IMG/VR virus record: IMGVR_UViG_3300027708_000021
From: a virus
Strand: one strand, 5' to 3'
Length of the DNA: 64,000 bases
The position numbers were made by a program, and so were the translations under genes. The notes beneath the pieces are model-generated. The model saw nothing but the letters and a program-made list of their open reading frames with translations. It had not been told where the DNA came from and ran no database searches. Positions 2-27,195 of the stretch are shown in pieces (the first letter of the stretch is position 1; each line of letters opens with the position of its first letter).

Positions 2-3000
2 CTAGGACTCAGTGATCAGACAAATCGTTCTAGTCCAGTACAGGTAGGAGTATTAAGCACATGGACTAGTGTAGGGGCCGGTGGTTACTTTACTGTTGCC
101 ACGCAAACATCTGGTACATTATGGGCCTGGGGTAATAACAGTTTTGGTCAATTAGGCCTCAATACTTTGACTAATATTTCTAGTCCAGTACAACTGACTC
201 CTTTGGCTTTGTGGAGTAAGATAGCTACATCTAATGGATCTACCACTTCTGTAATAGGAATACAAAGCAATGGCACACTATGGGCTTGGGGCAATAACAC
301 TTTGGGTCAGTTAGGGGTCAATACTACAACAACTAGCTATTCTAGTCCAGTACAAGTTACTACACTAAATGGGTGGACACAAGTTGCTAGCGGACTTTAT
401 TTCACTGCGGCACTACAAACTCCTGGCACACTATATGCTTGGGGTAGTAACAGTTACGGCCAACTAGGAATTAATACTGCAGTAGCCCAAACGCGATCGA
501 GCCCAACATTAATAGGATTGCCGCCAACAGGTTTATGGAGTAAAGTATTGGCATCTTGTGGCTATTCTACAGCATCAATTCAAAGCGATGGCACACTATG
601 GACATGGGGTAATAATCCTAACGGTCAATTAGGCCTTGGCGATCTAACAAATCGTTCCATCCCAATACAAGTAGGTACATTGAACACGTGGAGCCAACTT
701 GCTGGCGGGCAATTTGGTTTTATGCTAGCTATCCAGACACCAGGAACATTATGGTCCTGGGGTGTAAATAACTTTGGTCAATTGGGTCTTAACACATCAA
801 CTAACTACTCTAGTCCCATACAAGTGGGCACACTGAACTATTGGACTCGAGTTTCCAGCGGATATTTTCATACAGCGGCCATATTAAGCCCAGGTACATT
901 GTGGACATGGGGTTTTAATGCTTATGGTCAAAATGGTCTCAATACTTCGACTAGCTACTCTAGTCCGGTACAAGTGGGAGCATTGAACTATTGGACTCAA
1001 GTTGCTTGCGGATATAATCATACTGCGTCTATTCAGAGCCCCGGTACACTATGGACCTGGGGTAGTAACAGTTACGGCCAACTGGGCATTAACACTGCAA
1101 TAGCCCAAACCCGATCAAGTCCAGTACAAGTGGGTACGCTGAGTACATGGACCCAAGTTGCCTGCGGATATAATTATACTGCGGCCATACAAAGCCCGGG
1201 CACATTGTGGATGTGGGGAAATAACAGTTTTGGCCAATTAGGACAAAGCAACACTACTAACAGAAGTAGTCCAGTACAAGTAGGAGCATTATCTATATGG
1301 ACCAATGTGTCGACTGCTACTAGTAGTAGTAATTCTTTTACTGCAGCCATACAAACGCCAGGAACATTATGGACTTGGGGTAATAATAGTTTTGGTCAAC
1401 TAGGGCTTAATACTTCCACATTAAGTAATATTTTCAGTCCAGTGCAAGTTGGTGCTCTGAGTACGTGGACCCAAATCTCTGCCGGAGTAGCGTATACCGC
1501 AGCTATACTGAGTAATGGAATATTGTATGAATGGGGTCAGAATAATGCTGGACAATTGGGGCAAAATAATACATCTAATCGTTCCAGCCCAACACAAATA
1601 GGTGGGCCATCGTGGACACAGGTCGCTTGCGGATATTATCATAGCACAGCCATACAAAGCAATGGTACATTGTGGTCATGGGGAGCAAATAGTTTTGGTC
1701 AATTAGGGCTTAATACTTCAATATTAAGTAATATTTCAAGTCCAGTACAAGTTGGAGCATTAAGTGTATGGACTCGCGTAGCTCTCGGCAATTATCACAC
1801 TCTAGGTATACAAACCCCGGGTACATTATATGCTTGGGGATTGAATAGTTTTGGTCAATTAGGTACAGGTAATCAAACAAATCTTTCAAGTCCATTACAA
1901 GTTGGCGCACTATCAATCTGGACACAGATTGCTTGCGGATATAGTCATACACTTGCTATACAAACGCCAGGCACACTATGGTCATGGGGTAATAATAGTT
2001 TTGGTCAGTTAGGTCTTAGCGATCAGACAAATAGAAGTAGCCCAGTACAATTAGGTTCATTAAGCACATGGACTCAAGTCTCATGTGGAGCATATTGGTC
2101 TATGGCACTGCAAAACAATGGTACATTATGGTCTTGGGGACTAAACTCATTTGGCCAATTAGGCACCAGCAATCAAGTAAATTATTCTAGTCCAGTACAA
2201 GTAGGCATACTAAGTATCTGGTCTCAAATTGGTAGCCAAGGCAATGCCGCCGCAGTTATACAAAGTAACGGTACATTGTGGTCATGGGGAAGTAATAGTT
2301 TTGGCCAGTTAGGTCTCAATACTAGTACTAATTGGTCTAGTCCAGTACTAATAAACGGAATAAGTAATTGGATACAAGTCACATGTGGCTACTCAAACAC
2401 ACTGGCATTACTGAGCAATGGCTCATTATGGGCTTGGGGCAATAATGTTCAGGGTCAATTAGGTCTTAACACTTCAACTAACTACTCTAGTCCAATACAA
2501 GTAGGCTTATTAAGTTTATGGTCACAAGTATCCAGCGCAGGGTCTTCCACTACAGCTATACAAACACCGGGTACCTTATGGTCTTGGGGATTGAATAGTT
2601 ACGGCGCTTTAGGTCTCAATACTTTAACCAATTACTCTAGCCCAGTACAAATAGGCAATCAATCTTATTGGACTCAACTGGCTGTTAACAATTTTGGAAG
2701 TAGTGCGGTCAGTCAAGGTTTCATGGCTGCCATACAAAGCCCAGGTACACTATGGCTTTGGGGTAATAACAGTTATAATCAATTAGGCTATAGTCCGATA
2801 TCTTATAGAAGTTTTGCCACTCAGATAGGTACATCAGGAGCGTGGACAGGATTCCCCACAGGATCACAGAATAGTATATGGGGCGCCGCAATAAATTCCA
2901 ATAACAATTTATATGTCTGGGGTGTTAATTCCAATAGAATATTAAATTCTAATTATTATATCTATGATACCGTTGATACCATAGCACAAGGTTCAGTTAT

Positions 3001-6000
3001 AGTAAATCCAGTGCCGTTAGATCCTACATTAAGCACACCTATTAAATCAGTGTCGATCGGTGATCAGTTTGGTGTATATGTACAGACTAATGGCACATTA
3101 TGGTCTTGGGGCAATGTAAGTTTTGGTCAAGTGCCCGTAGGAATTCGATCAGTGCCAAGTGCGACTTATATGTCAGGCTGGACTAGAGTGGCTTCTGGGC
3201 CCAGCATCAGTTATCAAAGCATAGCTATACAAAGTCCAGGGACACTATGGTCGTGGGGAAATAATGCAAATGGAGCGTTGGGACTTAGTGACACATCAAC
3301 TCGATCAAGCCCAGTACAAGTGGGCACAACAAGTACTTGGACGCAAATTGCCTGCGGGTATAATTTTAGTACAGCCCTACAAAGCAATGGGTCATTATGG
3401 TCATGGGGTTATAATGCTCATGGAGAATTAGGCCTGAGCGACACAGCAAATCGTTCTAGCCCAGTACAAGTGGGGGCATTAACTAGTTGGACGCAGGTTG
3501 CCAACGGTTATATATATTCAGTAGCTTTACAAACTAATGGTACATTATGGTCATGGGGTTACAATGGTAATGGTCAATTAGGCACTAACAGTCTAACTAA
3601 TGTTTCTAGTCCAGTAGTAGTGGCCTCTAGTGCGTATACGGCTGTATGGGCTAGTACAAATGGTGGTGGTGGTGGTTCCAGTTTTACAGCAGCAATACAA
3701 AGCAATGGTACACTATGGACATGGGGGTCAAATGCTGTTGGTGGGCAATTAGGTCTCGGCGATACAAATAATAGAAGTATTCCAACACAAGTGGGTTTAT
3801 CGAGCACATGGACCCAAATTTCTAGTGGAAATTATTTCACTGTAGCCCTACAAACTCCTGGCACATTATGGGCATGGGGGAATAACAGTCAAGGGCAATT
3901 GGGTCTTAACACATTAACTAACTACTCTAGTCCCGTACAAATGGGTGCGGTAAACTATTGGACGCAAGTATCCTGTGGTTATCAGCATACTGTTGCTCTA
4001 CAAACTCCAGGAACATTATGGTCCTGGGGAAATAACAGTTTTGGTCAGTTAGGCCTCAGCGATACGGTAACTCGTTCTAGTCCAACGCAAGTAGGTGTAC
4101 TGAACTATTGGACACAAGTCTCAAATGGACATAATTTCACAGCAGCCATACTAAGCCCTGGCACATTATGGGCATGGGGCGGTAACGGGGATGGTCAATT
4201 GGGTCAAAGTAATACCACTGATCGATCAAGTCCAGTACAAGTAGGCGCACTGAGTATATGGACTCAGGTTGCCTCCGGAGTTAGATTCATGCTAGCATTA
4301 CAAAGCAACGGCACACTATGGGGTTGTGGATACAATTTTTTAGGTCAATTAGGAAATAATAGTACAACTAATCAATTAAGTCTAGTACAAGTGGGCTCGT
4401 TGAGTGTATGGACTAGAGTATCTGCTAGTACTTACCAGTCTATTGGATTACAAAGCAACGGCACACTATGGGCCTGGGGGTTTAATAGTAGTGGTCAATT
4501 GGGAGTCAGTAATACAACTAATAGATCCAGTCCAACACAAGTAGGCACTCTAAGCTCATGGACTCGAGTCTCTGCTTTAAACAGCTTTTCAAATGCTATA
4601 CAAAACGATGGTACATTATACATCTGGGGCACCAATGGCGGCAATGGACAATTAGGAAATAATAGTACAATTAATCAATCAAGTCCTATACAAGTGTCAT
4701 TAGTAGTTGGAGTACCTAGTACCGCATGGAATAAAATTTCCTGCGGATATGGTCAGACAGCAGCACTACAAAGCGATGGTACATTATGGGCTTGGGGTTA
4801 TAATAATTTTGGACAATTAGGAGTCGGTGATACCGTAAGTCGTTCTAGTCCAGGTCAAATAGGACAATCACCAGGTATTGGGCTATGGAACAAGATCAGT
4901 GGCGGCGGCGCATACTTTGCAGGAATTCAAAGCAACGGAACGCTATGGTCGTGGGGCAGTAATTTTTTGGGTGCGTTGGGACTTAATGACCAAAACAATC
5001 GGTCTAGTCCAGTGCAGATAGGCGCATTGAATATCTGGAGTCAAATCTTTTGCGGTCTAGACGCCAGTACACTAGCTATACAAAGCCCTGGTACATTATG
5101 GGCCTGGGGGCGCAATGATCTAGGCCAATTAGGTATTAGTACTATAACAAATCGTTCAAGTCCAACACAAGTAGGCGCAGTAAATTATTGGACAACTGCC
5201 GCTGTAGGAGCAGAGCATGCCTTAGCAATACAAAGCCCAGGTACACTATGGTCTTGGGGTTTTAATAATAATGGACAATTAGGTAATAATAGTAACTCTA
5301 ATAGAAGTAGCCCAGTACAAATTGGCCTATCAAGTACTTGGACTCGAGTGGCCTGCGGATCTTATTATACCGTAGCTATCCAAACACCAGGTACATTGTG
5401 GGCATGGGGAGATAATAGTTGGGGACAATTAGGCACCAGCAATCAATTTAATCGTTCTAGTCCAGTACAAATAGGCGCATTAAGTGTATGGACTCAAATT
5501 GCCTGCGGATACTCCAGCACAATAGCATTACAAAGCAACGGCACACTATGGACTTGGGGCAATAATAGTTATGGTCAACTAGGGCTCGGCGATCAAATAC
5601 ATCGATCTAGTCCAGTACAAGTGGGTCTATTAAGTCAATGGTCTCAGATCTCTTGCGGATATTATTTTAGTTCAGCTATACAAAATAATGGCACACTATG
5701 GTCATGGGGACTTAACAGTTATGGTCAACTAGGCCTAAGCGATGCAACAAATAGATCTAGCCCAGTTCAAATAGGCTCACTAAGTGTATGGGCTCAACTT
5801 GCACCCACTGGTGATTATAATATGGGGGCTATACAAAGTAATGGAACATTATGGACTTGGGGTAGAAATGACTCTGGTCAATTGGGTCAGAATAATATAG
5901 TTGCTGCTCAATCTAGTCCTGTACAATTAGGCGGTGGACCAACCTGGACTCAATTATCTGCTGGGTATTACTACACCGCAGCTATACAAACACCAGGTAC

Positions 6001-6736
6001 ACTATGGACTTGGGGTAATAATAGTTTTGGTCAACTGGGCAGTAGTAACACAACACATAGATCTAGTCCAGCACAAGTTGGTGCGTTGACCACATGGACA
6101 CAAGTTAGTTGTGGATACTATAGTACACTGGCAACACAAAGCAATGGCACACTATGGACTTGGGGTAATAACAGTTATGGTCAATTAGGTCAAAATGATA
6201 GTACTAACCGTTTTAGTCCAGTACAAGTAGGCACATTGAGTAATTGGTCTCAACTTAGTAACGGAGCCGCATTCTTAGCAGCCATACAAAGCAACGGAGT
6301 ATTATCACTATGGGGTAATAATAGTTATGGTCAACTAGGTTATGCTGCTGTGGTCGCTCCGCTTCAGGTGTCTACACAATCAATTTGGTCGCAAGTGGCT
6401 TGCGGTGTAAATCATGCCTTGGGTGTTCAAAGTAATGGCAGTCTTTGGGCATGGGGTAATAATAGTTTTGGCCAGTTGGGCACCAGCGATGTAACACATC
6501 GTAGTAGCATAACACAAGTAGGCACATTATCCAGCTGGAGTCGCGTGGCCTGCGGATTAGCGCACTCTGCGGCATTACAAAGTAATGGAACATTGTGGGC
6601 TTGGGGCAATAATAGTTGGGGTCAATTGGGACAAGGTAACATTACTAACACATCAAGTCCTGTACAAGTTGGCTCCTTGAGCAGATATGTATCAGTATAT
6701 GCTATGAATTATACTACCTTGGCAGAAACACAATGA
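2..6736 (+). CDS. Giant RCC1/BLIP-II repeat multi-beta-propeller protein (5'-partial; probable virion fibre/adhesin)
   Basis: The frame is open from nt 2 (LGLSDQTNRSSPVQVG...), so the ORF-track start at 167 is not the real start. About 43 repeats of W-x-Q-V-x-x-G...A-I-Q-S/T-N/P-G-T-L-W-x-W-G-x-N-x-x-G-Q-L-G...SSPVQVG. Confidence 0.9.
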   Translation, partial: LGLSDQTNRSSPVQVGVLSTWTSVGAGGYFTVATQTSGTLWAWGNNSFGQLGLNTLTNISSPVQLTPLALWSKIATSNGSTTSVIGIQSNGTLWAWGNNTLGQLGVNTTTTSYSSPVQVTTLNGWTQVASGLYFTAALQTPGTLYAWGSNSYGQLGINTAVAQTRSSPTLIGLPPTGLWSKVLASCGYSTASIQSDGTLWTWGNNPNGQLGLGDLTNRSIPIQVGTLNTWSQLAGGQFGFMLAIQTPGTLWSWGVNNFGQLGLNTSTNYSSPIQVGTLNYWTRVSSGYFHTAAILSPGTLWTWGFNAYGQNGLNTSTSYSSPVQVGALNYWTQVACGYNHTASIQSPGTLWTWGSNSYGQLGINTAIAQTRSSPVQVGTLSTWTQVACGYNYTAAIQSPGTLWMWGNNSFGQLGQSNTTNRSSPVQVGALSIWTNVSTATSSSNSFTAAIQTPGTLWTWGNNSFGQLGLNTSTLSNIFSPVQVGALSTWTQISAGVAYTAAILSNGILYEWGQNNAGQLGQNNTSNRSSPTQIGGPSWTQVACGYYHSTAIQSNGTLWSWGANSFGQLGLNTSILSNISSPVQVGALSVWTRVALGNYHTLGIQTPGTLYAWGLNSFGQLGTGNQTNLSSPLQVGALSIWTQIACGYSHTLAIQTPGTLWSWGNNSFGQLGLSDQTNRSSPVQLGSLSTWTQVSCGAYWSMALQNNGTLWSWGLNSFGQLGTSNQVNYSSPVQVGILSIWSQIGSQGNAAAVIQSNGTLWSWGSNSFGQLGLNTSTNWSSPVLINGISNWIQVTCGYSNTLALLSNGSLWAWGNNVQGQLGLNTSTNYSSPIQVGLLSLWSQVSSAGSSTTAIQTPGTLWSWGLNSYGALGLNTLTNYSSPVQIGNQSYWTQLAVNNFGSSAVSQGFMAAIQSPGTLWLWGNNSYNQLGYSPISYRSFATQIGTSGAWTGFPTGSQNSIWGAAINSNNNLYVWGVNSNRILNSNYYIYDTVDTIAQGSVIVNPVPLDPTLSTPIKSVSIGDQFGVYVQTNGTLWSWGNVSFGQVPVGIRSVPSATYMSGWTRVASGPSISYQSIAIQSPGTLWSWGNNANGALGLSDTSTRSSPVQVGTTSTWTQIACGYNFSTALQSNGSLWSWGYNAHGELGLSDTANRSSPVQVGALTSWTQVANGYIYSVALQTNGTLWSWGYNGNGQLGTNSLTNVSSPVVVASSAYTAVWASTNGGGGGSSFTAAIQSNGTLWTWGSNAVGGQLGLGDTNNRSIPTQVGLSSTWTQISSGNYFTVALQTPGTLWAWGNNSQGQLGLNTLTNYSSPVQMGAVNYWTQVSCGYQHTVALQTPGTLWSWGNNSFGQLGLSDTVTRSSPTQVGVLNYWTQVSNGHNFTAAILSPGTLWAWGGNGDGQLGQSNTTDRSSPVQVGALSIWTQVASGVRFMLALQSNGTLWGCGYNFLGQLGNNSTTNQLSLVQVGSLSVWTRVSASTYQSIGLQSNGTLWAWGFNSSGQLGVSNTTNRSSPTQVGTLSSWTRVSALNSFSNAIQNDGTLYIWGTNGGNGQLGNNSTINQSSPIQVSLVVGVPSTAWNKISCGYGQTAALQSDGTLWAWGYNNFGQLGVGDTVSRSSPGQIGQSPGIGLWNKISGGGAYFAGIQSNGTLWSWGSNFLGALGLNDQNNRSSPVQIGALNIWSQIFCGLDASTLAIQSPGTLWAWGRNDLGQLGISTITNRSSPTQVGAVNYWTTAAVGAEHALAIQSPGTLWSWGFNNNGQLGNNSNSNRSSPVQIGLSSTWTRVACGSYYTVAIQTPGTLWAWGDNSWGQLGTSNQFNRSSPVQIGALSVWTQIACGYSSTIALQSNGTLWTWGNNSYGQLGLGDQIHRSSPVQVGLLSQWSQISCGYYFSSAIQNNGTLWSWGLNSYGQLGLSDATNRSSPVQIGSLSVWAQLAPTGDYNMGAIQSNGTLWTWGRNDSGQLGQNNIVAAQSSPVQLGGGPTWTQLSAGYYYTAAIQTPGTLWTWGNNSFGQLGSSNTTHRSSPAQVGALTTWTQVSCGYYSTLATQSNGTLWTWGNNSYGQLGQNDSTNRFSPVQVGTLSNWSQLSNGAAFLAAIQSNGVLSLWGNNSYGQLGYAAVVAPLQVSTQSIWSQVACGVNHALGVQSNGSLWAWGNNSFGQLGTSDVTHRSSITQVGTLSSWSRVACGLAHSAALQSNGTLWAWGNNSWGQLGQGNITNTSSPVQVGSLSRYVSVYAMNYTTLAETQ

Positions 6737-7869
6737 CCTATAATATAAACAGTAGCCAAGTACTCAATAATAGATATTTTAGTAATTCTACATTTTCCGC
6801 AAACAATGCATTGTATGCCTGGGGTAATAACACTTTTGGTCAATTAGGCCTCAGCGATACAACTAACAGATCAAGTCCAGCGCAAGTTGGCACCTTGAAC
6901 TACTGGACCCAAGTATCCTGCGGATATAATTATTTCTCTCTAGCACTACAAAGTCCAGGAACATTATGGTCCTGGGGAAGCAATTCTTTTGGTCAGTTGG
7001 GTGTTAATACCGCGCCTACAAACAATACCTCTAGCCCAGTACGTGTAGGCTCACTAAGCAACTGGCTACAAATAGCAGCTGGTAACGCCCACTGGTTAGC
7101 TATCCAAAGCCCAGGCACATTATGGAGTTGTGGATATAATGGATACGGTCAGTTAGGTCTTAATACTTCAACAAATTATTCTAGTCCTGTACAGATTGGC
7201 GCTTTGAACACTTGGACACAAGTAGCAGCTGGTAATTACTCTAGTTATGCTATACAGAATACCGGAACACTATGGTCTTGGGGAGTTAATACCTATGGAC
7301 AGTTGGGTCAAATTAATACTACAAACTATTCTAGTCCAGTACAAGTAGGTACATTGAGCACTTGGACACAGATATCCGTGAATTCTACATCTGCTACTGC
7401 TCTAGCAATACAAAGCAATGGTACATTATGGTCGTGGGGCATCAATAATTATGGTCAAATAGGCAATAGCAATACTGTTAATCAATCTAGTCCAGCGCAG
7501 ATAGGCACTTTATCTCTTTGGACCAGAATCGCCAACGGTGGATATTCAAGCTATGCTATACAAAGCAATGGTACACTATGGGCATGGGGATTGAACAGCC
7601 AAGGTCAACTAGGTCTTAACACCACTGTAGGAGTATCTAGTCCGGTACAAGTGGGTACAGCTAGTACTTGGTCGCAGGTAGGCGCCGGCGCACTACAGTT
7701 GATAGCTATACAAAACAATGGCACGTTATGGATGTGTGGCTATAACGCCCAAGGTCAATTAGGAAACAATTCAACTACCAACATTTCTACACTCACCCAA
7801 GTAGGGTCACTAAATAAATGGAACTTTGCTACAGGTGCTTGGCAGATTTTGGCACAGCAAATTCCTTAA
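6733..7869 (+). CDS. Single 7-bladed RCC1-repeat protein, paralog of the upstream giant protein
   Basis: Same repeat consensus; ATGA overlap with the upstream stop. Confidence 0.9.
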   Translation: MTYNINSSQVLNNRYFSNSTFSANNALYAWGNNTFGQLGLSDTTNRSSPAQVGTLNYWTQVSCGYNYFSLALQSPGTLWSWGSNSFGQLGVNTAPTNNTSSPVRVGSLSNWLQIAAGNAHWLAIQSPGTLWSCGYNGYGQLGLNTSTNYSSPVQIGALNTWTQVAAGNYSSYAIQNTGTLWSWGVNTYGQLGQINTTNYSSPVQVGTLSTWTQISVNSTSATALAIQSNGTLWSWGINNYGQIGNSNTVNQSSPAQIGTLSLWTRIANGGYSSYAIQSNGTLWAWGLNSQGQLGLNTTVGVSSPVQVGTASTWSQVGAGALQLIAIQNNGTLWMCGYNAQGQLGNNSTTNISTLTQVGSLNKWNFATGAWQILAQQIP

Positions 7870-7885
7870 TTTAGACAGGTGATTA

Positions 7886-8536
7886 ATGAAACAACTTATT
7901 ATTGACAGCGGGTTTTACAACGATCCCGAGCAAATGAAGACACTCTTCGTGAATCTTGACTTTGTAAAGAATGAAAACATGTTACAAGGCAAGATATGTC
8001 CCATGCAGTTTGCCAATGATGACATGTTACGGCATATCCAGAATATCATTGGAGTACCAGACAATATCTCCGCATTTGAATTTGTTGCAGGATCCGGCAC
8101 ATTTATCAGTAACCAAGCAGATGAATTGCCGGCCAGATCAGTTTGTATCCAATATCCGGAGCCTAACACACAATGGGTAGGCGTTGTATCTCTAAACAAG
8201 TCTGAAAAACCGCATTATTTGAAATTCTACAAACACAAGCGTACAGGTTGGGACCATGTTTCCATGGATCCAGAAGAGTTGTCCAAAGAGAAATTGTATT
8301 CCTATGAGCACATCGAAGCATTCATGGCTTTTGAAAATAATAATTGGGAAGATAAATGGGAAGAAACTAGCCGCGTTGAGTTAAAACCTAACGAATTGGT
8401 GTTGTTTAGACCTTGGATGTTCCATTCTTACAATGATGTTTTTGGTGATAGCCAGCAGACAGCCAGACTTCTCCAATTCTTCTTCTTAAAACCTACACAA
8501 GACTTGACAACTAGCCAAGAACCAAGTACAATCTAA
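7886..8536 (+). CDS. 2OG-Fe(II) oxygenase-like protein (DUF6445-like)
   Basis: C-terminal NELVLFRPWMFHS...FGD...ARLLQFFF resembles the jelly-roll oxygenase end; the first HxD is not evident. Confidence 0.55.
   Translation: MKQLIIDSGFYNDPEQMKTLFVNLDFVKNENMLQGKICPMQFANDDMLRHIQNIIGVPDNISAFEFVAGSGTFISNQADELPARSVCIQYPEPNTQWVGVVSLNKSEKPHYLKFYKHKRTGWDHVSMDPEELSKEKLYSYEHIEAFMAFENNNWEDKWEETSRVELKPNELVLFRPWMFHSYNDVFGDSQQTARLLQFFFLKPTQDLTTSQEPSTI
8504..8532 (+). promoter_or_regulatory. sigma70-type promoter upstream of the sulfotransferase/glycosyltransferase genes
   Basis: TTGACA (8504-8509), 17-nt spacer, TACAAT (8527-8532). Confidence 0.7.
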
Positions 8537-8564
8537 TTAGAAGTATCTAAACGGAAAAATTATC

Positions 8565-9344
8565 ATGGAAAATATTCATTTCATCTCTGGCCTTCCACGT
8601 GCGGGCACAACATTATTATCTTCAATCCTTAAACAGAATCCAAAATTTAATAGTTCGATCTCAGGACCACTTGCTCGGTTTTATAGAGCTATCATCGAAG
8701 AATCACAATCACAAGGCGGATATCGTTTTCAATGCCCCAAAGAAAAACGCAAAGAGTTGATACACTCTGTTACAGACACATATTATAAAGATAGTGCGCC
8801 AACAGTATTTGATACTAATCGGGGTTGGACATATCTAACTCCAATGCTAGCTGATTTATATCCCAAGGCCAAGACTATTGTTTGTATCCGTAGTATTCCT
8901 TGGATCATCGACAGCTTTGAAACATTGTTTGCCAAAAATCCATATGATGTTCCCCTTATGTTTCCACAAGGTGCTGGCGTTAGTGTTTATAGTCGTGCCA
9001 AGTACTTGACAGATCCTTCGGCATTCGTAGGATTTGCCTATGACGGTGTCAAGCAAGCCATGTTTGGACCTAACAAAGAAAACATCATGGTTGTACAATA
9101 CGACCAGCTGGCTAAAAATCCTAAACTAGTAATGAAGAAGATCTATGAATTTATTGGCGAGCCGTGGTATGAACACGACTTTGACAATGTTCAAGGCGAC
9201 TACGACGAGTTCGACACTGACATGAATATCAATGGATTACATCATGTACGCCAGAAGGTACAGTATAAAGAGCGTCAGACTATATTGCCAGGAGACTTAT
9301 TCAATCATCTCGAGCAGATGGATTTCTGGAAACATCTTAAATGA
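8565..9344 (+). CDS. PAPS-dependent sulfotransferase
   Basis: 5'-PSB loop FISGLPRAGTTLL; 3'-PB-like IRSIPWIIDS; YDQLAKNP...IYEFIGE. Confidence 0.85.
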   Translation: MENIHFISGLPRAGTTLLSSILKQNPKFNSSISGPLARFYRAIIEESQSQGGYRFQCPKEKRKELIHSVTDTYYKDSAPTVFDTNRGWTYLTPMLADLYPKAKTIVCIRSIPWIIDSFETLFAKNPYDVPLMFPQGAGVSVYSRAKYLTDPSAFVGFAYDGVKQAMFGPNKENIMVVQYDQLAKNPKLVMKKIYEFIGEPWYEHDFDNVQGDYDEFDTDMNINGLHHVRQKVQYKERQTILPGDLFNHLEQMDFWKHLK

Positions 9345-10123
9345 TAGGTAAGCCCCGTAGGAATGTGTTGGTATCTGCAGAATGTGGCACACTATTAGTC
9401 AATAGATTTGATTACAATCCAGCAAATAACTTTGGGGTAGGGCAGTTTATACTAGACAAAGGGATCGACTGTATGGTCCCTGCTTACATATTAAAAAGAT
9501 ATTTTACAGACATAGCTAATCCCGTAGTAATAGATGTAGGATCTAATATAGGTGTATTTGCTCTCCAAGCAGCACAACATGTGGAACAATTTAACGGCTA
9601 TGTCTATGCCTTTGAACCACAGGAACAACCATTCTATCTTAACTGTGCTAACTATGCCTTGAACAATATCGACAATGCTAGAGTAGAACGATTAGCAGTT
9701 GGCGATACAACCAAGCCAATCACCATACCCAAAATTAATTACTATCAACCTTCTAGCTTTGGTAGTGTGGGATTGACTGGCGAATATGACGGAGATGTAG
9801 GACAAGAATTAGATTTTGGCAATGGTGATCAGGTACCCCAGATCATCATCGATGAATATTTTAAAGATATCGGTAATATTGTATTCGTAAAAATAGATGT
9901 AGAAGGCATGGAGATGAATGTCTTAAAAGGCTCCATGGAAACTATCAAACGGAATCGTCCTTTCTTATTTGTAGAATATACTAAACAACCAAATAACGGC
10001 AACGACTTGAAAGAATTTATTGAGGCCTTGGATTATACAATATATATTACACATCAAGATTTTGTTTGTATTCCAAACGAAAGAGTTGATACAAAAATAC
10101 AAGAGATATTAAACGAATTATGA
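9341..10123 (+). CDS. FkbM-family SAM-dependent methyltransferase
   Basis: VIDVGSNIG, VYAFEP, FVKIDVEGMEMNVLKG. Confidence 0.9.
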   Translation: MIGKPRRNVLVSAECGTLLVNRFDYNPANNFGVGQFILDKGIDCMVPAYILKRYFTDIANPVVIDVGSNIGVFALQAAQHVEQFNGYVYAFEPQEQPFYLNCANYALNNIDNARVERLAVGDTTKPITIPKINYYQPSSFGSVGLTGEYDGDVGQELDFGNGDQVPQIIIDEYFKDIGNIVFVKIDVEGMEMNVLKGSMETIKRNRPFLFVEYTKQPNNGNDLKEFIEALDYTIYITHQDFVCIPNERVDTKIQEILNEL

Positions 10124-11493
10124 TGACTGATCATGACGCTGTAAAACAAACTATAGAAATCTTCACCCGCACTGATTTATTAGATGAGATAGTCACTCTC
10201 TTAGAGACTTTTGAAAAACACAAAGTAGTACCAAACGATTTACTGGGCAATGATTTATATTGTTTTGGGTATAACAAAGCCAAAAAATTCCTTAAATCCA
10301 TCGAATATGGAGAAAGGGCGTTAGAGCAGGCCAAGTCTATTGAAGAAAAACTAGCAGTATCAGCAAACTTGGCCAAAGTATATCTATCGGCTAACAAGCC
10401 TACCAAGGCGGTGTCAGCATTTAAGTTTATGTCTAATAATATAGACATGGGTGCTGAAGGCATGTTAGATCTTTCAGCGGCATTATTTGCCTGTAATAGA
10501 AAAGATGAATCCTATGAGATACTGAAAAATATAGAAAAAGATCTATGGAAGTATGATGGTACCATGGCCGATTCTATATTATTCAACATGGGTGTACACT
10601 ATATAGCTCAAGGTGATTTTAAAACAGGCATGGAACATCTCTCAATAGGCCGTAAATTAAAAGTATTCGGATCATATTCTAAGGTCACAGATGGATTACC
10701 AGAGTGGGATGGCAAGCCACGCCCAGGCAAACATTTATTATTTGTAGCAGAGGGTGGCATCGGTGACGAAATTATCAATGTAAGATTTGTTAAAAATATC
10801 TTAGCCATGGGTATGACCTGTTCTATAATGTCAGTACATGGCATTACCAGCGTTTATAGTCATCTTGGATTTACTAAGATGATCAATACTAGCCAATACA
10901 ACAAACGAGATTTTGACTACTGGACTCCAATGATGGATTTACCAAAGACATTGAATCTTGACGCTGATCAATTATGGACTGGTCCTTACTTAGAAGCCAA
11001 ACCAGAATATATAGAAAAGTACAAAAATTCTATCACTGGTGATTATAAAGTAGGATTACGCTGGGCAGGCAATGCCAGATATGACCATGAACTACATCGA
11101 ACATTAAATCTACAGAGCATGATAAATGCCATGCCAAAAGACAATGCGTGGTCCTTGTACTCCATACAGCGTGATGTGGGCATGGACCAATTAAAACAGA
11201 ATCCCCGTGTCAAAGATCTCAGTTTGGAACTCAAAACATTTGACGACTTGTTGGGAATCATGTATAATTTAGACTTAATCATCACAAGTTGTACCTCTGT
11301 GGCACATGCCGCTTGTGCCATGGGCAAGAAAACTATTATCCTAGTACCAATTATGGAATATTATACTTGGGCAGAAGGTAAGCCAACAGCTAGTTGGTAT
11401 GGCGACAATTTAAGATTGATTAGACAGGTAACTCCAGAAATTTGGAAAGAAGCATACGCAGAATTAAAAGAAGTACTCAAGGACATCGAATGA
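10120..11493 (+). CDS. TPR-repeat plus GT-B (GT9-like) glycosyltransferase
   Basis: Helical TPR-like N-half; EGGIGDEI, VGLRWAG, LDLIITSCTSVAHAACAMGK. Confidence 0.75.
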   Translation: MMTDHDAVKQTIEIFTRTDLLDEIVTLLETFEKHKVVPNDLLGNDLYCFGYNKAKKFLKSIEYGERALEQAKSIEEKLAVSANLAKVYLSANKPTKAVSAFKFMSNNIDMGAEGMLDLSAALFACNRKDESYEILKNIEKDLWKYDGTMADSILFNMGVHYIAQGDFKTGMEHLSIGRKLKVFGSYSKVTDGLPEWDGKPRPGKHLLFVAEGGIGDEIINVRFVKNILAMGMTCSIMSVHGITSVYSHLGFTKMINTSQYNKRDFDYWTPMMDLPKTLNLDADQLWTGPYLEAKPEYIEKYKNSITGDYKVGLRWAGNARYDHELHRTLNLQSMINAMPKDNAWSLYSIQRDVGMDQLKQNPRVKDLSLELKTFDDLLGIMYNLDLIITSCTSVAHAACAMGKKTIILVPIMEYYTWAEGKPTASWYGDNLRLIRQVTPEIWKEAYAELKEVLKDIE

Positions 11494-14309
11494 AAAAAAC
11501 TATTGGATTCGTAACATCGGGATTAAAATTTAACGGACATACTGTTAATGAAAAAGCATTAGGCGGATCTGAATCAGCACTGATCTACATGGCTAGAGAA
11601 ATGTTCAAGCTGGGCAATGATGTAGTAGTATATTGCGAATGCGATGTCCCAGGTTGGTACGATGGCGTGGAATATCGCACAGTAGATCAATACACCAACG
11701 ATAACAAAGCACAGTTTGATACATTAATTGTAAGTAGATTTACAGATTTCCTAGCACTACCAGTTGACAGTAAGATGAATATCCTGTGGTGTCATGATAT
11801 CGATACTAATAATTTTAGAGATGCAATAGGTTGTACTGACAGAGTATTTTGTCTTAGCGAGTTCCATAAGTCTTTATTTGTTAAAAACTATGACATTGAT
11901 CCGACAAATTATGTATGGAAGACTTCTAATGGATATGATCAAGAGATTGTTACAGAGTATGTACCATACGAACAGAAGAAAAATAACTATATCTATGCTA
12001 GCCGTCCTGAGCGTGGCTTAAAATTATTACTGGAAAAGATATGGCCCGAGATCATCGAGCGTAATCCCGATGCGACCTTACATATCTGTACCTACGAACA
12101 TTCATTATCACTACCAGAGGATGTTAAAAAGATACACAAAGAAGTAGAAGACCTATTAGAGTACAGTCGTAATATTAAACAGATTGGTCACTTGCCCAAG
12201 CGTGAGTTTTATGAATTATTGTCTAATTGTGCTTACATGGTATATCCAACGAACTTCCCGGAGATTTCTTGTATCAGTGCCATAGAAGCACAATACAACG
12301 GATGCTTGGTCATCACCACAGATGAATTTGCCATGTCAGAGACCGTAAAGACTGACACTAAAGTCAAGGTCACGGACGACTACGGAACCGTAGACTATGT
12401 AACAAAATTCTTAGCACATTTGGACAAGTACCAAGATGATGTATATGAAGCTGAAGTAGCTAAGGCTAAAAAAGCCATACTACCATATGCTTGGGAGAGA
12501 GTGGCAAAATCCTGGAACTCCGAGATAGATTTCATGTTCAACAAGAGACATGAAAAATACAAAGACAAAATCCTTGACCAATTGGTTTATAATTCTGACA
12601 TTGTAGCCGCTTGGAAATTAACAGGTGACCAGAAATATCGCGATATGTTGGATCAAGGCGAAAAAGATAACTTAACTATTTCCGATTTTACTCCTGTAGC
12701 CAAAGATGAAGATGCTTATCTTAGCGGTCGGGGAATGAAATTAATCGAGCTAGTCCAGAATGAAATTGAGATGTTCCCTAGCAAAAAGTTAAAAATCCTT
12801 GATTTAGGCAGTAATGACGGCATACTTTCGTTACCACTCATGAAGAGATTCGCTGATAATATTGAAGTATTGACTATGTATGATTCGTCTCAGGGTGTAT
12901 TGGACCATGTAAAATCACAGTACAAAACAAAATACCCGCAGATAAATTATATCGTAGATGATGTAAGAAATGTATTGACTTATGACTTACAACCTGACAT
13001 CGTACTCGTTGGCGAATTATTAGAACACATCGAAGACACACAACAGTTCCTTGATTTCTTAATGAAACTTGCTAATAAGAATACATTATTTTATTTTACT
13101 GTACCCATGGGCCCTTGGGAACACATGGTCAAGAGAAAAAAATTAGAAATACATCATGTACATCACTTTGAATTGAATGACTTACATGCTATATTTAAAA
13201 ATGTTGACTTGTCTATAGCTAAAAACGCACACAGTACCAAAGGTCGTAAGGGTGAAATGTGTAGCAACTGGATGTTCTGGTTTACAGCTAGCAAGGATGA
13301 CGACATCGAGTTTGGCTATGTTGACTACGAAGACAAATGGCTCAAGACCAGACCATATAAAACTATATCTACTTGTATGATCGTATGCAACGAAGAAGAT
13401 AATCTCAGTCGTTGTTTGAAAACTGTTACTGATTTTTCTGATGAGATCATTATTGTAGACACAGGATCAACCGATGATACCAAGTATATCGCAGGTAAAT
13501 TCACTGACAAGATCTATGATTTAAAGTGGGAAGAAGAGGATGGCCTTGGCAACTTTGCCAGAGCTAGAAACTACTCTATCAGCCTTGCTACAGGGGATTA
13601 TATCTTTTGGATTGACGCGGATGAACAACTAGAAAATAGTATGGCCCTACAAAAATATATTATCAGCGATTATTACGACGGTATCTTATTGCGTCAAGTA
13701 CAGGCCATGAGTAAGAAAGCGCATGACAACGGAGTCAATGTGGATGTTATGCATGATAGATTTTTTAGAAACAATATAGGCATTAAGTTCACTGGTGTCA
13801 TACATGAATATCCTAGTAGAGATGACGAACATTTCCTAGGTTATAAGATGTTCTGGCAGGATCATATCTATGTCACCCACTACGGTCTGGCAAATCAGGA
13901 GACATTAAAGCGCAAAGCCATAGGAAGAAACGCTAATCTGATATATAAGAATGTAAGAACATACCCTAAACGAGTATTTGCTAGACACTATATCATGGTG
14001 GATTACTGGAGTCAGTTTATCACAGGACATCCAACTCCAGACATGACATGGTTAGAAAAAGGTATGGACATATGGCATAATGACTTGAAGAAATGCGGTG
14101 ATGATTGGACTATCCGATTGTCGCTGGGAGTACTACAGCATTTCTATAGCTATTGTGCCGCAAATGGTATCGCCTTCAAAGGTAAATTGCCCGAGAAGGT
14201 AGCTTTCCAGAATGGAGAAAACGGCGAGATGATAGATTTCTTTGTTGTTGATCCTGAAGAAGAAAGTGATTTTTTCTTGAAATATCTCGCAAATTTCAAG
14301 AGACCTTAA
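11490..14309 (+). CDS. Multidomain GT4-like glycosyltransferase / class I methyltransferase / GT2 glycosyltransferase
   Basis: Start taken at the ATGA overlap (11490). GT4: LGGSESA, YASRPERGL, FPEISCISAIEAQ. MTase: ILDLGSNDG. GT2: CMIVCNEE, IVDTGSTDDT, NFARARN, WIDADE, GVIHE. Confidence 0.85.
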   Translation: MKKTIGFVTSGLKFNGHTVNEKALGGSESALIYMAREMFKLGNDVVVYCECDVPGWYDGVEYRTVDQYTNDNKAQFDTLIVSRFTDFLALPVDSKMNILWCHDIDTNNFRDAIGCTDRVFCLSEFHKSLFVKNYDIDPTNYVWKTSNGYDQEIVTEYVPYEQKKNNYIYASRPERGLKLLLEKIWPEIIERNPDATLHICTYEHSLSLPEDVKKIHKEVEDLLEYSRNIKQIGHLPKREFYELLSNCAYMVYPTNFPEISCISAIEAQYNGCLVITTDEFAMSETVKTDTKVKVTDDYGTVDYVTKFLAHLDKYQDDVYEAEVAKAKKAILPYAWERVAKSWNSEIDFMFNKRHEKYKDKILDQLVYNSDIVAAWKLTGDQKYRDMLDQGEKDNLTISDFTPVAKDEDAYLSGRGMKLIELVQNEIEMFPSKKLKILDLGSNDGILSLPLMKRFADNIEVLTMYDSSQGVLDHVKSQYKTKYPQINYIVDDVRNVLTYDLQPDIVLVGELLEHIEDTQQFLDFLMKLANKNTLFYFTVPMGPWEHMVKRKKLEIHHVHHFELNDLHAIFKNVDLSIAKNAHSTKGRKGEMCSNWMFWFTASKDDDIEFGYVDYEDKWLKTRPYKTISTCMIVCNEEDNLSRCLKTVTDFSDEIIIVDTGSTDDTKYIAGKFTDKIYDLKWEEEDGLGNFARARNYSISLATGDYIFWIDADEQLENSMALQKYIISDYYDGILLRQVQAMSKKAHDNGVNVDVMHDRFFRNNIGIKFTGVIHEYPSRDDEHFLGYKMFWQDHIYVTHYGLANQETLKRKAIGRNANLIYKNVRTYPKRVFARHYIMVDYWSQFITGHPTPDMTWLEKGMDIWHNDLKKCGDDWTIRLSLGVLQHFYSYCAANGIAFKGKLPEKVAFQNGENGEMIDFFVVDPEEESDFFLKYLANFKRP

Positions 14310-14326
14310 TTAAAAAGGAAATAAAC

Positions 14327-14581
14327 ATGTATTATGCAAAAATAGTTGATGGACAATTTTTAGGTAGAGTTAATGTAGCTGATGAAACACCTGGTGTACA
14401 TTTTGCCACAGAGCCTACTCCTGAGCAGTTAGCACCATATAATTTAGTAATTGTTTTTGATGCGCCTATACTGCCAACTTACGACCCAGAAACACAAACA
14501 CTAGCTGAAGTCAATCCTACAGTAGGCGGGGATGGACACTGGTATGCTACTTACGAAGTCGTTGATAAAACAACACCTTAA
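14327..14581 (+). CDS. Small acidic protein, possible tail-fibre accessory/chaperone
   Basis: AAGGA RBS; PTYDPETQ motif typical of phage fibre-associated proteins. Confidence 0.45.
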   Translation: MYYAKIVDGQFLGRVNVADETPGVHFATEPTPEQLAPYNLVIVFDAPILPTYDPETQTLAEVNPTVGGDGHWYATYEVVDKTTP

Positions 14582-14598
14582 TATTATAAAGGAAAACA

Positions 14599-15438
14599 AT
14601 GTCACAGCGTATATTAATCATGGGCCTACCTGGCTCAGGTAAAACTACCTTAGCAGGAGAACTTAAAACGTACTTGGAAAAGCACGGTGATATGAGTTAC
14701 GGTCGTGCTCTTAATGAACACATTGGTAGTTTTGGCTGCGAAGTAAATTGGTTTAATGCCGATGACATCCGCAGAAAATACAACGACTGGGATTTTTCTA
14801 ATGATGGCCGTATCCGTCAAAGTATCCGTATGTTCCAGTTTAGTATGGAATCGGGCGGTGATTATGTAATCTGTGACTTTGTAGCTCCTTTAGTTGAAAT
14901 GCGTAACAACTTCAAGGCCGACTGGACTATCTGGGTAGACACTATCCGCGAAGGTCGTTATGCTGATACCAATGCGGCATTTGTTGAACCTGAACAATAT
15001 GATTTTAGAATCACAGAACAAAACGCAGAAAAATGGGCAGAGTTTATCGGTCAACACATTATTGATAATCGCCGCCGTCCTCGATTTGACTGGCAGAAAG
15101 AAACAGTACAGATGCTAGGCAGGTGGCAACCGTTTCACGATGGACATAAGGCGTTATTTGAAAGATTAATTGCTCGAACAGGACAAGTAGTGATACAAAT
15201 CCGTGACTGTCAAGGTTGGCAAGGATCTAACCCATTCGCTATAGAACAAGTTAAAAAATTTATCCGTAGAGAGTTAGATCCTGTATATCAAGGGCAGTAT
15301 GAAATACAAGTAGTGCCTAATATTGTACACATTGGATACGGGCGTGGGGTAGGGTACACTATAGAACAGGAAGTGTTTGATGACGAAACACACGATATCA
15401 GTGCTACAAAGATTCGTAAAGAGCTGGGCCTTAAATAA
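14599..15438 (+). CDS. cysC: Adenylylsulfate kinase-like domain fused to a HIGH-family nucleotidyltransferase domain
   Basis: P-loop GLPGSGKTT, NADDIR, WDFS..GR; C-domain GRWQPFHDGH and ISATKIR. Confidence 0.75.
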   Translation: MSQRILIMGLPGSGKTTLAGELKTYLEKHGDMSYGRALNEHIGSFGCEVNWFNADDIRRKYNDWDFSNDGRIRQSIRMFQFSMESGGDYVICDFVAPLVEMRNNFKADWTIWVDTIREGRYADTNAAFVEPEQYDFRITEQNAEKWAEFIGQHIIDNRRRPRFDWQKETVQMLGRWQPFHDGHKALFERLIARTGQVVIQIRDCQGWQGSNPFAIEQVKKFIRRELDPVYQGQYEIQVVPNIVHIGYGRGVGYTIEQEVFDDETHDISATKIRKELGLK

Positions 15439-15643
15439 TAGCGAGACTGCTTGGCGTAGTCTTGTTAAGGCCTATTCTTATCGTTGTTGCGGAACCGTAA
15501 CTACAATCGTAATTTCTTATGTGATCACTGGCGAATTTATTCTTAGTCTAGGTATAGGTGCTACAGAAATGATTATTAAACCGTTTATTTACTGGTCCCA
15601 TGAAAGAGTCTGGAGCCGTATTAAATGGGGCAAAAACAATTAA
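15380..15643 (+). CDS. DUF2061-like small membrane protein
   Basis: ET..RSLVKAYSYR...YWSHERVWSRIKWG; start uncertain (ATG 15380 preceded by AGGAAG). Confidence 0.7.
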   Translation: MTKHTISVLQRFVKSWALNNSETAWRSLVKAYSYRCCGTVTTIVISYVITGEFILSLGIGATEMIIKPFIYWSHERVWSRIKWGKNN

Positions 15644-15672
15644 CTGGGCATATAATTAACTAAGTAAATTTA

Positions 15673-15702
15673 ACTCCTGACTCGATGGAGTATAAAATCG
15701 AG
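15673..15702 (+). ncRNA. Candidate H-type RNA pseudoknot in an intergenic/3' UTR region
   Basis: S1 ACTCC/GGAGT, S2 CTCGAT/ATCGAG, L1 TGA, L3 ATAAA. Confidence 0.4.
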
Positions 15703-15739
15703 CTGGTGGGTCGGCAAACTCGGTATAATAAAAACAATC

Positions 15740-15760
15740 AAGCACATTATGTGCTTTTTT
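15740..15760 (+). terminator. Rho-independent terminator ending the modification cassette
   Basis: AAGCACA-TTA-TGTGCTT followed by a T-run. Confidence 0.7.
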
Positions 15761-15788
15761 GTTGACAAACATTTCGCTAAATATAGAT

Positions 15789-16451
15789 ATGGAAGCTAGA
15801 TATAGAAAAGATTACCCGGGCGAATTTGTTATTTTAGAATCCAAATGGGCCGGTGGTAAAAAACACGAAAAACGCGAATGGATTGAAAATCCTATCATAA
15901 ATCAACACCTATCTGGTAGAGCCGCAGTTATCGGTAGTAGTGAAAGCAGAGATAGATTTGATTATAAAGTATTAGAAGGTCATCGTGGCGGCTTGTTGGG
16001 TTCGTTAAAATTACAAACATACGGCACAGCAAAAATTGCTTTAGATATGCGTTTAGATTTTGCTGTAGATACTGATTACAATAATCTTATTCCTTTGGTC
16101 GAAAGCAAATATACAGAAAATAATATTGTATATACAACTAGTAAGAACTGTCTTAAACAGCCAGGCGAATTTTATTTAACACCATTAAATCCACATTTAT
16201 GTACAGCCGTACTGCCAATATATCTTGCTGCATTCGATGGACATAAAGAAATTTACATGTTAGGTTACGATAAAGAAACAGAGGCTGGACAGTCTGATTG
16301 GATTGATCAAGTTACCAGATTAATGAATGCTTATGCTGGCACACTTTTTATTATGGTTGGTAATAAACTGAATATGCCAGATGCTTGGTTGTCTTGCCCT
16401 AATACTAAAAACTTAGATTTTAGAGACTTTGTAACTCACTGCGATGTTTGA
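15789..16451 (+). CDS. Maf/DUF115-like (sialyltransferase-like fold) protein
   Basis: AAVIGSSESR and LAAFDGHKEIYMLGYD; ATG 15789 lies 5 nt after TAAATA (15778-15783). Confidence 0.5.
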   Translation: MEARYRKDYPGEFVILESKWAGGKKHEKREWIENPIINQHLSGRAAVIGSSESRDRFDYKVLEGHRGGLLGSLKLQTYGTAKIALDMRLDFAVDTDYNNLIPLVESKYTENNIVYTTSKNCLKQPGEFYLTPLNPHLCTAVLPIYLAAFDGHKEIYMLGYDKETEAGQSDWIDQVTRLMNAYAGTLFIMVGNKLNMPDAWLSCPNTKNLDFRDFVTHCDV

Positions 16452-16885
16452 AGCTGTTGTTGTATAATAGAAATTTTATTTTGTACTGCTTCAAAATTTA
16501 TAGTTGACCATAACCCCGGATGTAGTGGTTTAGGCCAAGTTCCTGAATCAATCCAAGCATACCCTGAATGTTCGTCATTTAATCTAGGACTAAATTCAGT
16601 CGCCACAACACAGAAAAAAGTGTTATAAGCAAATCCACCGTCAGCACTTGTAAATTTCTCCAATGGTATTAATTTAATATAATCGGGCATACTGCCAATT
16701 TCTTCTTCGCACTCGCGAACCATGGCCGCCATAATGCTTTCTCCTGATTCCATTTTGCCACCTGGAAGACCCCACGAGTCTGGATGTTTTGGATCATTGC
16801 GAACCAAGTACAAATAACGATTGGTCGATTGACTATAGAACCAAATCCCAACAGCGTTGACTATTTTTAGATTATTAGCGACCAT
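16436..16885 (-). CDS. Nudix hydrolase
   Basis: Nudix box GGKMESGESIMAAMVRECEEEIG. Confidence 0.9.
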   Translation of the reverse strand: MVANNLKIVNAVGIWFYSQSTNRYLYLVRNDPKHPDSWGLPGGKMESGESIMAAMVRECEEEIGSMPDYIKLIPLEKFTSADGGFAYNTFFCVVATEFSPRLNDEHSGYAWIDSGTWPKPLHPGLWSTINFEAVQNKISIIQQQLQTSQ

Positions 16886-26500: not shown

Positions 26501-27195
26501 CAGGCGATGGCAATTTAGCTGCTGGCGATCCGTATGGAGCAACATTCTATCCAAGTTGTCGTACTACTGATCTTAGTGGGAATTTTTGTGTAACTTATCC
26601 AAGCCATATGATGATTCGTACTATCATTCGCAGCGATGAAGTCGCTTATCCTTGGTTAGCTCCAGCAGGAACACGACGCGGTTTAGTTGATAATGCACAA
26701 CAATTAGGCTACTTAAATGGTATCACTGGTGTATTTGAAACATTGAGTGTTGGCCAATCATTGCGTGATGTACTGTACTCAAATCAAATTAATCCAATTA
26801 CCTATATTCCAGGCGTTGGTATTACTAACTTTGGTAATAAGACATTACAAGCAACGGCAACAGCATTGGATCGTATTAACGTGGCTCGTTTAATATGCTT
26901 TATCCGTGCTAGACTTGAAGCAATTGGCAAGCAGTATTTGTTTGAACCAAATGATCAAATTACCCGTACAGGAATCAGCAATTCAATCACAAGTTTAATG
27001 ATTGATTTAGTATCTAAACGCGGTATTTACGATTATTTGGTAGTATGTGATAGTACAAACAATACACCAACAACAATCGATCAAAATCAGTTATGGGTTG
27101 ATATTGCTATTGAGCCAGTGAAAGCTGTGGAATTCATTTATATTCCTCTGCGTATTGAAAATACTGGAGCGATTGCGGCGCAGGCTGCTGCTTAA
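23557..27195 (+). CDS. gp18: Contractile tail sheath protein (T4 gp18-like) with large insertion
   Basis: LVSPGVQVTVVDES; PWLAPAGTRRG; RDVLYSNQINPI; DRINVARL; FEPND; IEPVKAVEFIYI; TAAATA at 23524-23529 plus RBS. Confidence 0.92.
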   Translation: MANTLVSPGVQVTVVDESQYLPAATNSVPLVVIATASNKLSGDGQGIAPGTLTANADQLYLATSQRALSAHYGVPFFYTTTNGTPINGYELNEYGLLAAYSALGVTNQCYVIRANIDLAALTASLTRPIGNPNNGTYWLDTTTSQWGLFQWSQTKRTFTNVIPSVITNSEYLNSSSSVPLESYGSIGQYAVTATYTSNPIYFKRGGPTSDQTPDTEISNLYNTWVQIGSNEWQTSWATVQGNTTPSSLSAGSFTINGQTIPVGNGNSVTNVVSSITSVGLAGVYAANIGGSLTLYCDSTATAAPISITGITSNANVVTATYATQGNVPFTVGSTIAIGGVNPSIYNGEYVVSNCTLTTVSFSSTIANAYVSGGTVGSETGTIVLGPSGSNADPTLTALGLSAGTYYAPYYQNSPGYTVPSWSTGGANATGVTGSIWQKSTSANHGTSLVMKEYNSTLGVYVIKSVPVYSTDNNALYGLDPSNGGQTIPAGSLFAKSYPYNQGTAGYTILERYTTGETIVTGSNTTPSFTTGNQFTIGASQPGTASNTQATVTLGGNTAVDFVSAVSSADIPYVSASIASTGAIVMTHSAGGDIELTNVTGTPVTDAGFIPGTTFLVRQRYIDGVPIGSLLSNWVGSPTFTYTASDVAPDQNPTDGTYWYYSDPTQVDIMIQDNGVWQGYQNVTSDSRGYDLTQTNATGPIISATAPTTQTDQAESPLVYGDLWLNTSDLENYPLLYRWQSVDGVDQWVQIVNTDQTQSSGILFADARWAPNGTTDPVSAALPTIESLLTSNYLDPDAPNALLYPTGILLWNTRRSGFNVKTYQSNYFNNQSYPTYEWDDATSYTIGEYVQYNNSVYACINNNTNQQPDTATTYWAPQDVTSTWLSATGSRPDGAPYMGRQSQRILIVEAMKAAVDTNTQIREEQNSYNLIAATGYPELAPNLEALNNEINNVAFAIIDTPLRLTPEDVAKWASDNNGLGLPTGDGNLAAGDPYGATFYPSCRTTDLSGNFCVTYPSHMMIRTIIRSDEVAYPWLAPAGTRRGLVDNAQQLGYLNGITGVFETLSVGQSLRDVLYSNQINPITYIPGVGITNFGNKTLQATATALDRINVARLICFIRARLEAIGKQYLFEPNDQITRTGISNSITSLMIDLVSKRGIYDYLVVCDSTNNTPTTIDQNQLWVDIAIEPVKAVEFIYIPLRIENTGAIAAQAAA

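Follow-up and report, generated by a model that had tools for sequence, protein, structure and literature searches.

A giant phage RCC1-repeat protein with a conserved frame and, perhaps, inserted propeller arms

How does a single polypeptide of more than forty RCC1 blades fold? The question is raised by a 64,000-nucleotide stretch of viral DNA (IMG/VR record IMGVR_UViG_3300027708_000021, hereafter the window) that carries an open reading frame (ORF) at 2..6736 on the + strand. This ORF is open at its 5' edge, so that the gene starts upstream of the window, and it encodes 2244 amino acids (aa). An earlier note on this DNA proposed that seven-bladed propellers are inserted here into the loops of other propellers, with propeller C set within B, B within A, and both E and F within D; we keep these letters. 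The reading that we favour, and to which we would give about an even chance, is a conserved core with inserted arms whose inner wiring may be mixed.

RCC1 repeats make up the whole of the product. A Pfam profile search returned PF00415 at 1359.7 bits over 39 stretches and WD40_RLD (PF25390) at 1878.5 bits, and a unit count gave 43 repeats of 47-63 residues plus a partial first one. In the AlphaFold2 model, each unit (numbered u1, u2 and so on) runs from strand C (GTLWxWG) through a Gly-rich loop (GxNxxGQLG) and strand D (SSPVQV) to a five-residue connection (GALST) and a Trp, after which strands A and B of the next blade follow. The irregular linkers that interrupt the array thus correspond to variant forms of the short stretch that connects strand D of one blade to strand A of the next. 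Charged residues are sparse (31 Asp plus Glu and 42 Lys plus Arg among the 2244 residues), and there are 90 N-x-S/T sites. Lysine accounts for 0.2% of the product, or about five residues in all. All four lysines of the arms lie in a W-[SN]-K-[IV] motif with which strand A opens directly after the irregular linkers u1, u3, u30 and u31, and they mark these junctions as special, perhaps as recombination joints.

To locate boundaries within the array, the strand-D-to-strand-A stretch of each unit was scored against the repeat profile. The 11 lowest-scoring units (u19, u20, u41, u15, u23, u18, u31, u30, u38, u3 and u1) are each a boundary that the earlier note had named, and the twelfth named boundary, u10, ranks 14 and lacks one residue. 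Taken arm by arm, the four lowest-scoring linkers coincide exactly with the named set, {1,3,10,15} and {23,30,31,38}. Scoring thus recovered the irregular linkers of the earlier note together with its blade groups, which are 2/7/5/3 for as much of the N arm as is visible and 3/7/1/7/3 for the second arm (D). Its coordinates are likewise all correct (C, aa 180-538; B, 72-790; D, 1061-2114; E, about 1217-1576; F, 1630-1982), the QLGY ends fall at aa 927-930 and 2111-2114 as it had placed them, and the linker pair common to C and F (..GLW, later GG.P.W) is real. For a 21-blade arm with four junctions, 51 of the 4845 possible placements (1.05%) parse into complete seven-blade rings. Both arms do so, and the linker pattern is therefore not due to chance. 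The features of the gene and its downstream neighbour, all on the + strand, are given below with the basis of each assignment.

2..6736, the 3' 2244 codons of a giant RCC1-repeat gene (ORF, Pfam, unit count)
2..214, end of the first part of propeller A, up to linker QLTPLALW (low-scoring u1 linker, then W-SKI)
215..1291, first seven blades of the B plus C stretch, aa 72-430 (one ring in the AlphaFold2 model)
1292..2371, next seven blades, aa 431-790 (second ring in the AlphaFold2 model)
539..1615, aa 180-538, bounded by GLPPTGLW and GGPSW and proposed to be the inserted propeller C (the model shows no such ring)
2372..2791, last three blades of the N arm, ending NQLGY (unit count, linker scores)
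2792..3181, conserved middle core, made of two divergent blades and a long connection (u18-u20 orthologous in relatives)
3182..3649, D arm blades 1-3, aa 1061-1216 (linker scores)
3650..4729, seven blades (E), aa 1217-1576, whose flanking connections are 3 and 5 residues over normal (linker scores)
4730..4888, single blade between E and F, aa 1577-1629 (linker scores)
4889..5947, seven blades (F), aa 1630-1982, at a position where relative P0004 has seven blades and P0022 has none (linker scores, relatives)
5948..6343, last three blades of the D arm, ending GQLGY, aa 1983-2114 (linker scores)
6344..6736, conserved C-terminal core, two blades followed by a closing half-blade of strands A and B, up to the stop codon (u41-u43 orthologous in relatives)
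6733..7869, next gene, which overlaps the stop codon of 2..6736 by ATGA and encodes a 378-aa RCC1 protein with one set of seven repeats and a different leader (Pfam)

Unfortunately, blade arithmetic is by itself no proof of nesting. Tandem homologous rings give the same spacing, because the boundaries of an insert share their position modulo 7, as do repeated features at equivalent ring positions. Furthermore, pairwise unit identities within the product are flat, at about 50-55%, and neither a 7-unit periodicity nor a C/F diagonal was found in them.

A metagenomic protein search matched thousands of giant RCC1 proteins, of which a subset combines a leader that begins MADFAYGF.. (MADFAYGFRQNTNYVITSNTMYEIGRNYRF) with the C-terminus of the ORF 2-6736 product (..YVxVYAMNxTTLAETQ; ..VYAMNFTTLAETQ). 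Members of this family have 19, 26, 33 or 40 units, which is 5+7n, with lengths of 981-989, 1345-1354, 1696-1722 and 2066-2075 aa, respectively; three exceptions are taken up below. A unit-by-unit comparison with the relatives P0004, P0011 and P0022 gave orthologues (46-85% identity) only for u18-u20 and u41-u43, at 72-82% for u18-u19, 46-54% for u20 and 65-85% for u41-u43, and the arm units are without a clear orthologue in these three proteins. Whole arms can also be exchanged. P0087 and P0004 have the leader, N arm and middle blades in common, at up to 100% identity, and carry unrelated second arms of 7 and 21 blades. P0011 and P0004 differ by a seven-blade insertion or deletion (indel) at the very start of the N arm, which is in frame and fits nested and tandem arrangements alike.

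Based on these family lengths, we would expect a 61-aa leader and three units before unit 1 to lie upstream of the window, for a total of 47 = 5 + 42 units. The N arm would then have 21 blades, with four before the u1 linker and three after u15. The earlier note had predicted roughly five more blades upstream, in place of which we expect about 3.5 blades and the leader. The upstream sequence itself was not found, either by an exact 60-mer search of IMG/VR or by megablast against a phage collection.

The way in which the chain begins and ends bears on the conserved blades. Solved RCC1-like domains close by a 2+2 clasp, a single blade to which each end of the chain contributes two strands (PMC8773251). 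The ORF 2-6736 chain ends two strands (A and B) past a connection, and its relatives begin with strands that are profile-aligned to C and D, which is the same 2+2 strand phase; the single-ring neighbour at 6733-7869 has this phase at its ends as well. If the clasp is formed, both chain ends lie in one ring, and all remaining blades must therefore be in that ring or inserted into it. The blades that are left over once the arms are counted are the conserved ones, namely two in the middle, two and a half at the C-terminus and the half in the leader, and they number five rather than seven. Because of the 5+7n sizes, the conservation of the core only, the swapping of whole arms and the complementary half-blades at the termini, family comparison makes it likely that the arms are inserted into a discontinuous core. 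The proposal in the earlier note that leftover divergent blades form a core propeller closed by the C-terminus is therefore supported by comparison as regards the insertion of the arms, but not as regards the number of core blades.

We propose that this tail-fibre-region gene of a giant myovirus encodes a structural protein with about 47 RCC1 blades, in which the start and end of the chain would meet in the same small, conserved, discontinuous core. This core would comprise the leader half-blade, the two middle blades, the two C-terminal blades and the closing half-blade, for a total of five blades. The two variable arms, each with 21 blades and so equivalent to three seven-bladed RCC1 propellers, would be inserted between core blades. 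The arms would be the evolving part, such that related phages keep the same core and carry arms of 7, 14 or 21 blades that are exchanged or resized in whole-propeller steps. Our best guess for the N arm is a 4+3 host propeller that carries two tandem propellers, and for the second arm a 3+1+3 host with two separate inserts.

Several observations count against the proposed core. An AlphaFold2 prediction for the complete 981-aa relative P0123, from a 7-row alignment, reached a predicted local distance difference test score (pLDDT) of 38 and gave no usable core structure. We know of no precedent for a five-bladed RCC1-type ring. Three relatives do not obey the 5+7n rule: P0046 with 25 units, P0066 with about 32 and P0132 with about 22. 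In addition, the leader and the 47-unit total rest on family lengths, the N-terminus being outside the window. The more elaborate proposal, in which a five-bladed RCC1 core is closed by the chain ends, the inserted seven-bladed propellers bear further ones and the cassettes retune host binding, seems to us somewhat unlikely.

When P0046 is compared with its relatives P0063 and P0123, its second arm has six blades and is otherwise like that of P0123, a near-identical relative with seven, one of several near-identical blades being missing. This could be a tolerated six-blade ring or a repeat that collapsed during metagenome assembly. The 907-aa relative P0122 ends ..GDRKSTRLNSSHRL, which is unrelated to the family and suggests a chimera or an artefact at the end of the contig. 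No core-only or single-arm relative was found when protein representatives were searched with the middle core (P0197 being a fragment and P0196 a member of a different family), and no further indels could be read among other RCC1 families, whose unit-level alignment is too diverged.

On a related contig, where the gene order matches that found here, RCC1 genes of 1082, 487, 981 and 743 aa are followed by a 216-aa gene, and the 981-aa protein is the family member. We considered the possibility that gene 2-6736 is the second half of a split gene and rejected it, since the 487-aa and 981-aa genes are separate and in the same order on this contig. A ..TYGL ending was likewise dropped as a sign of a split gene, since it also closes the RCC1 protein P0113. 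The 743-aa gene is the positional counterpart of the 378-aa gene at 6733-7869 and has seven blades more. The 487-aa protein that precedes the family member has about 9.5 units, or seven plus about two. Nup145C lends a blade to Sec13, and by analogy the spare blades of such a partner could fill a five-blade core to seven, although this is pure speculation.

The inner wiring of the N arm was approached by folding aa 62-800, the stretch said to hold C inside B. Its 14 blades give complete rings both when nested (2[7]5, the brackets enclosing the insert) and when tandem (7/7). The alignment had 120 rows, made of 14-blade windows from other arrays. AlphaFold2 returned a model with a pLDDT of 88.7 and a predicted template modelling score (pTM) of 0.66 that consists of two tandem rings, aa ~71-430 and 431-800. 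We compared this model with 48,161 chains by VIA-align. RPGR, WBSCR16, RCC1 and Prp20 align to model positions 369/372..739 (332-337 residues, Z 16.6-22), and RCC2 aligns to 3..411 (338 residues, Z 18.8). The scores for UVR8, HERC2 RCC1-like domain 3 (RLD3) and RPGR are Z 23.5 (350 residues), 23.4 and 22.0, respectively. Among the RCC1-like matches, no structure aligns to 120..477, which is C alone, and none spans 11..729. Matches from BFVD superpose on one ring only.

Structure prediction thus did not recover C inside B and gave contiguous rings instead, although the alignment may have biased the result toward tandem. Most of its rows start at the first blade of their source array or 14 units later, and may carry tandem frames in register with the construct. 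Moreover, AlphaFold2 probably favours the simpler topology where orthologous covariation is lacking. Because the rows may favour tandem frames, we regard the model as a modest shift toward tandem rings that weakens the C-in-B arrangement without refuting it. Two features of the chain agree with the tandem result. Each modelled ring opens with a blade (u1 or u8) whose A-B hairpin is extended and rich in Ser/Thr, and in each the odd connection comes after blade 2. Such a hairpin was rejected as a general signature of first blades, as it fails in the minimal relatives. Two tandem rings are also compatible with insertion into A, as 4[7][7]3.

For the second arm, a natural indel is available. Up to and including blade 11 of this arm, the 33-unit P0022 and the 40-unit P0004 match at 88-100% identity, and colinearity resumes at the A strand of unit 34 in P0004. 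Between these points P0004 has exactly seven additional blades, which begin with an A strand and finish where a connection ends. They follow blade 11, which is out of the tandem frame counted from the start of the arm and is the predicted F site. Old interfaces would be preserved if F were nested and re-sorted if the rings were tandem, and for this reason the comparison of the two proteins moderately favours insertion at the F site. The 3[7]1[7]3 linker pattern, including a long Pro-rich connection after blade 10, is common to P0004 and the ORF 2-6736 product, and tandem ring boundaries in the D arm would fall at the regular connections u27 and u34. A predicted complex of D blades 1-11 with blades 19-21, made with frame-balanced alignments, had an interface score (interaction prediction score from aligned errors, ipSAE) of 0.00 and returned no contacts, which favours neither arrangement. 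A MAFFT alignment of the D arm with its relatives was shifted in register and was excluded from folding.

Given these observations, how much of the full tree drawn in the earlier note, with C in B in A, and E and F in D, all on the core, can be retained? The linkers speak for it in several ways. The four lowest in each arm parse into complete rings, as about one random set in a hundred does (1.05%), and the same pair flanks C and F, with ..GLW-[SN]K at entry and GG.P.W-TQ at return. The single blade between E and F sits at the longest connections, tandem boundaries in the D arm would hit the perfectly regular u27 and u34, and the four arm lysines occur at W-x-K just past irregular linkers. The exact seven-blade difference between P0004 and P0022 at the predicted F site is consistent with this tree as well. 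However, the confident prediction for aa 62-800 shows tandem rings and not 2[7]5, and the u1 and u8 hairpins and the odd linker after blade 2 in both rings are as expected of homologous tandem rings. Linker irregularity is also an unreliable mark of a boundary, in that the linkers at which the arms enter and leave are of normal length in the minimal relatives, as is the F entry linker in P0004, and unit identities show no periodicity of seven and no C/F diagonal. We therefore consider the complete tree unlikely.

A chain of consecutive seven-blade blocks, like beads on a string, would need no nesting at all. The divergent blades would then be spacers or partial propellers, and the irregular linkers surface loops. 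The sole confident model is tandem, seven-blade indels keep the tandem frame so that 7n arithmetic would be expected here too, and the flat unit identities give no module signal. Against this, five blades are left over in every family member, and their conservation goes unexplained; the terminal half-blades would be unpaired, unlike those of every solved RCC1-like domain; and arm cassettes are swapped exactly at the core boundaries. We find an entirely tandem chain distinctly unlikely. A core with inserted arms, some of whose rings may themselves be tandem, remains the arrangement that we prefer.

The surroundings of the gene are those of a giant myovirus genome. The same window encodes a tail sheath (23557-27195), a tail tube, a large terminase (36556-38118), a helicase and a fibre or spike gene. 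At 1212 aa the sheath is unusually long. The large terminase shares 52% identity with its counterparts in PA5oct-like Pseudomonas jumbo phages, and megablast found no close genome in the phage collection. Gene 2-6736 belongs to a run of four RCC1 genes, downstream of which is a series of modification genes at 7886-16885, as listed below.

First in the 7886-16885 run, a 216-aa DUF6445-like protein (weak match)
8565-9344, sulfotransferase
9341-10123, FkbM methyltransferase
10120-11493, tetratricopeptide repeat (TPR) protein
11442-14309, GT4-methyltransferase-GT2 fusion
14599-15438, P-loop protein resembling adenylyl-sulfate (APS) kinase
16436-16885, - strand, NUDIX hydrolase

Judging from this gene context, the ORF 2-6736 product probably has a host-binding role. 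A conserved core with cassette-like arms would be the pattern of a binding protein anchored on the virion, in which the core might dock to the particle or to partner RCC1 proteins while the propeller faces bind structures on the host surface.

The blades and rings of this protein are those of ordinary RCC1-like domains. RCC1, UVR8, the HERC2 RLDs, RPGR and the Alsin RLD have the same repeat, and the modelled rings superpose on UVR8, HERC2 RLD3 and RPGR over 331-350 residues, with Z of 22-23.5 and a root-mean-square deviation of 3.0-3.4 Å. The differences are in the assembly. RCC1-like domains are single seven-blade rings, whereas the product of ORF 2-6736 would string together about 47 blades without spacers. 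Most of its rings would close without a clasp, and the ring that holds the termini would be discontinuous and have five blades. Several seven-blade rings per chain are found in DDB1, SF3B3, CPSF160 and double WD40 propellers, where the last ring and the chain ends share some strands, but these proteins have a fixed number of rings, use another repeat family and show no cassette-like gain or loss of rings.

Domains inserted into propellers are also established. In integrin alpha, the I domain is inserted between propeller blades. An immunoglobulin-like domain is inserted in the propeller of the crAss-phage muzzle protein (PMC10172136), and Alsin has a disordered insert in blade 5 (PMC8773251). 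In all of these, the chain leaves the propeller at a loop between or within blades, builds another unit and returns. Here, in contrast, each insert would itself be a propeller, of one family with its host, and there would be two insertion sites and perhaps several levels of insertion. Phrase searches of a literature collection turned up no account of one propeller set into another. Giant all-RCC1 proteins of Oscillospiraceae, which are presumed to be extracellular binders (bioRxiv 10.1101/2023.11.21.568195), and the metagenomic RCC1 arrays are very long RCC1-only chains like the ORF 2-6736 product. The latter differs from them in being phage-encoded, with a defined leader, middle and C-terminal core and the 5+7n rule; the ring topology of the giants has not been described.

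If the rings prove simply to be tandem, this protein would be an ordinary, very long RCC1 array with an unusual conserved frame. If the proposal is true, however, a core with inserted arms would be an undescribed way to build very large proteins, and it would point to a five-bladed RCC1-type ring. A closed repeat fold would serve as both scaffold and insert, and size could evolve by whole rings while existing interfaces are left undisturbed. Given that related giant phages differ by whole propellers in three of four adjacent RCC1 genes, these genes are likely to be a determinant of host range.

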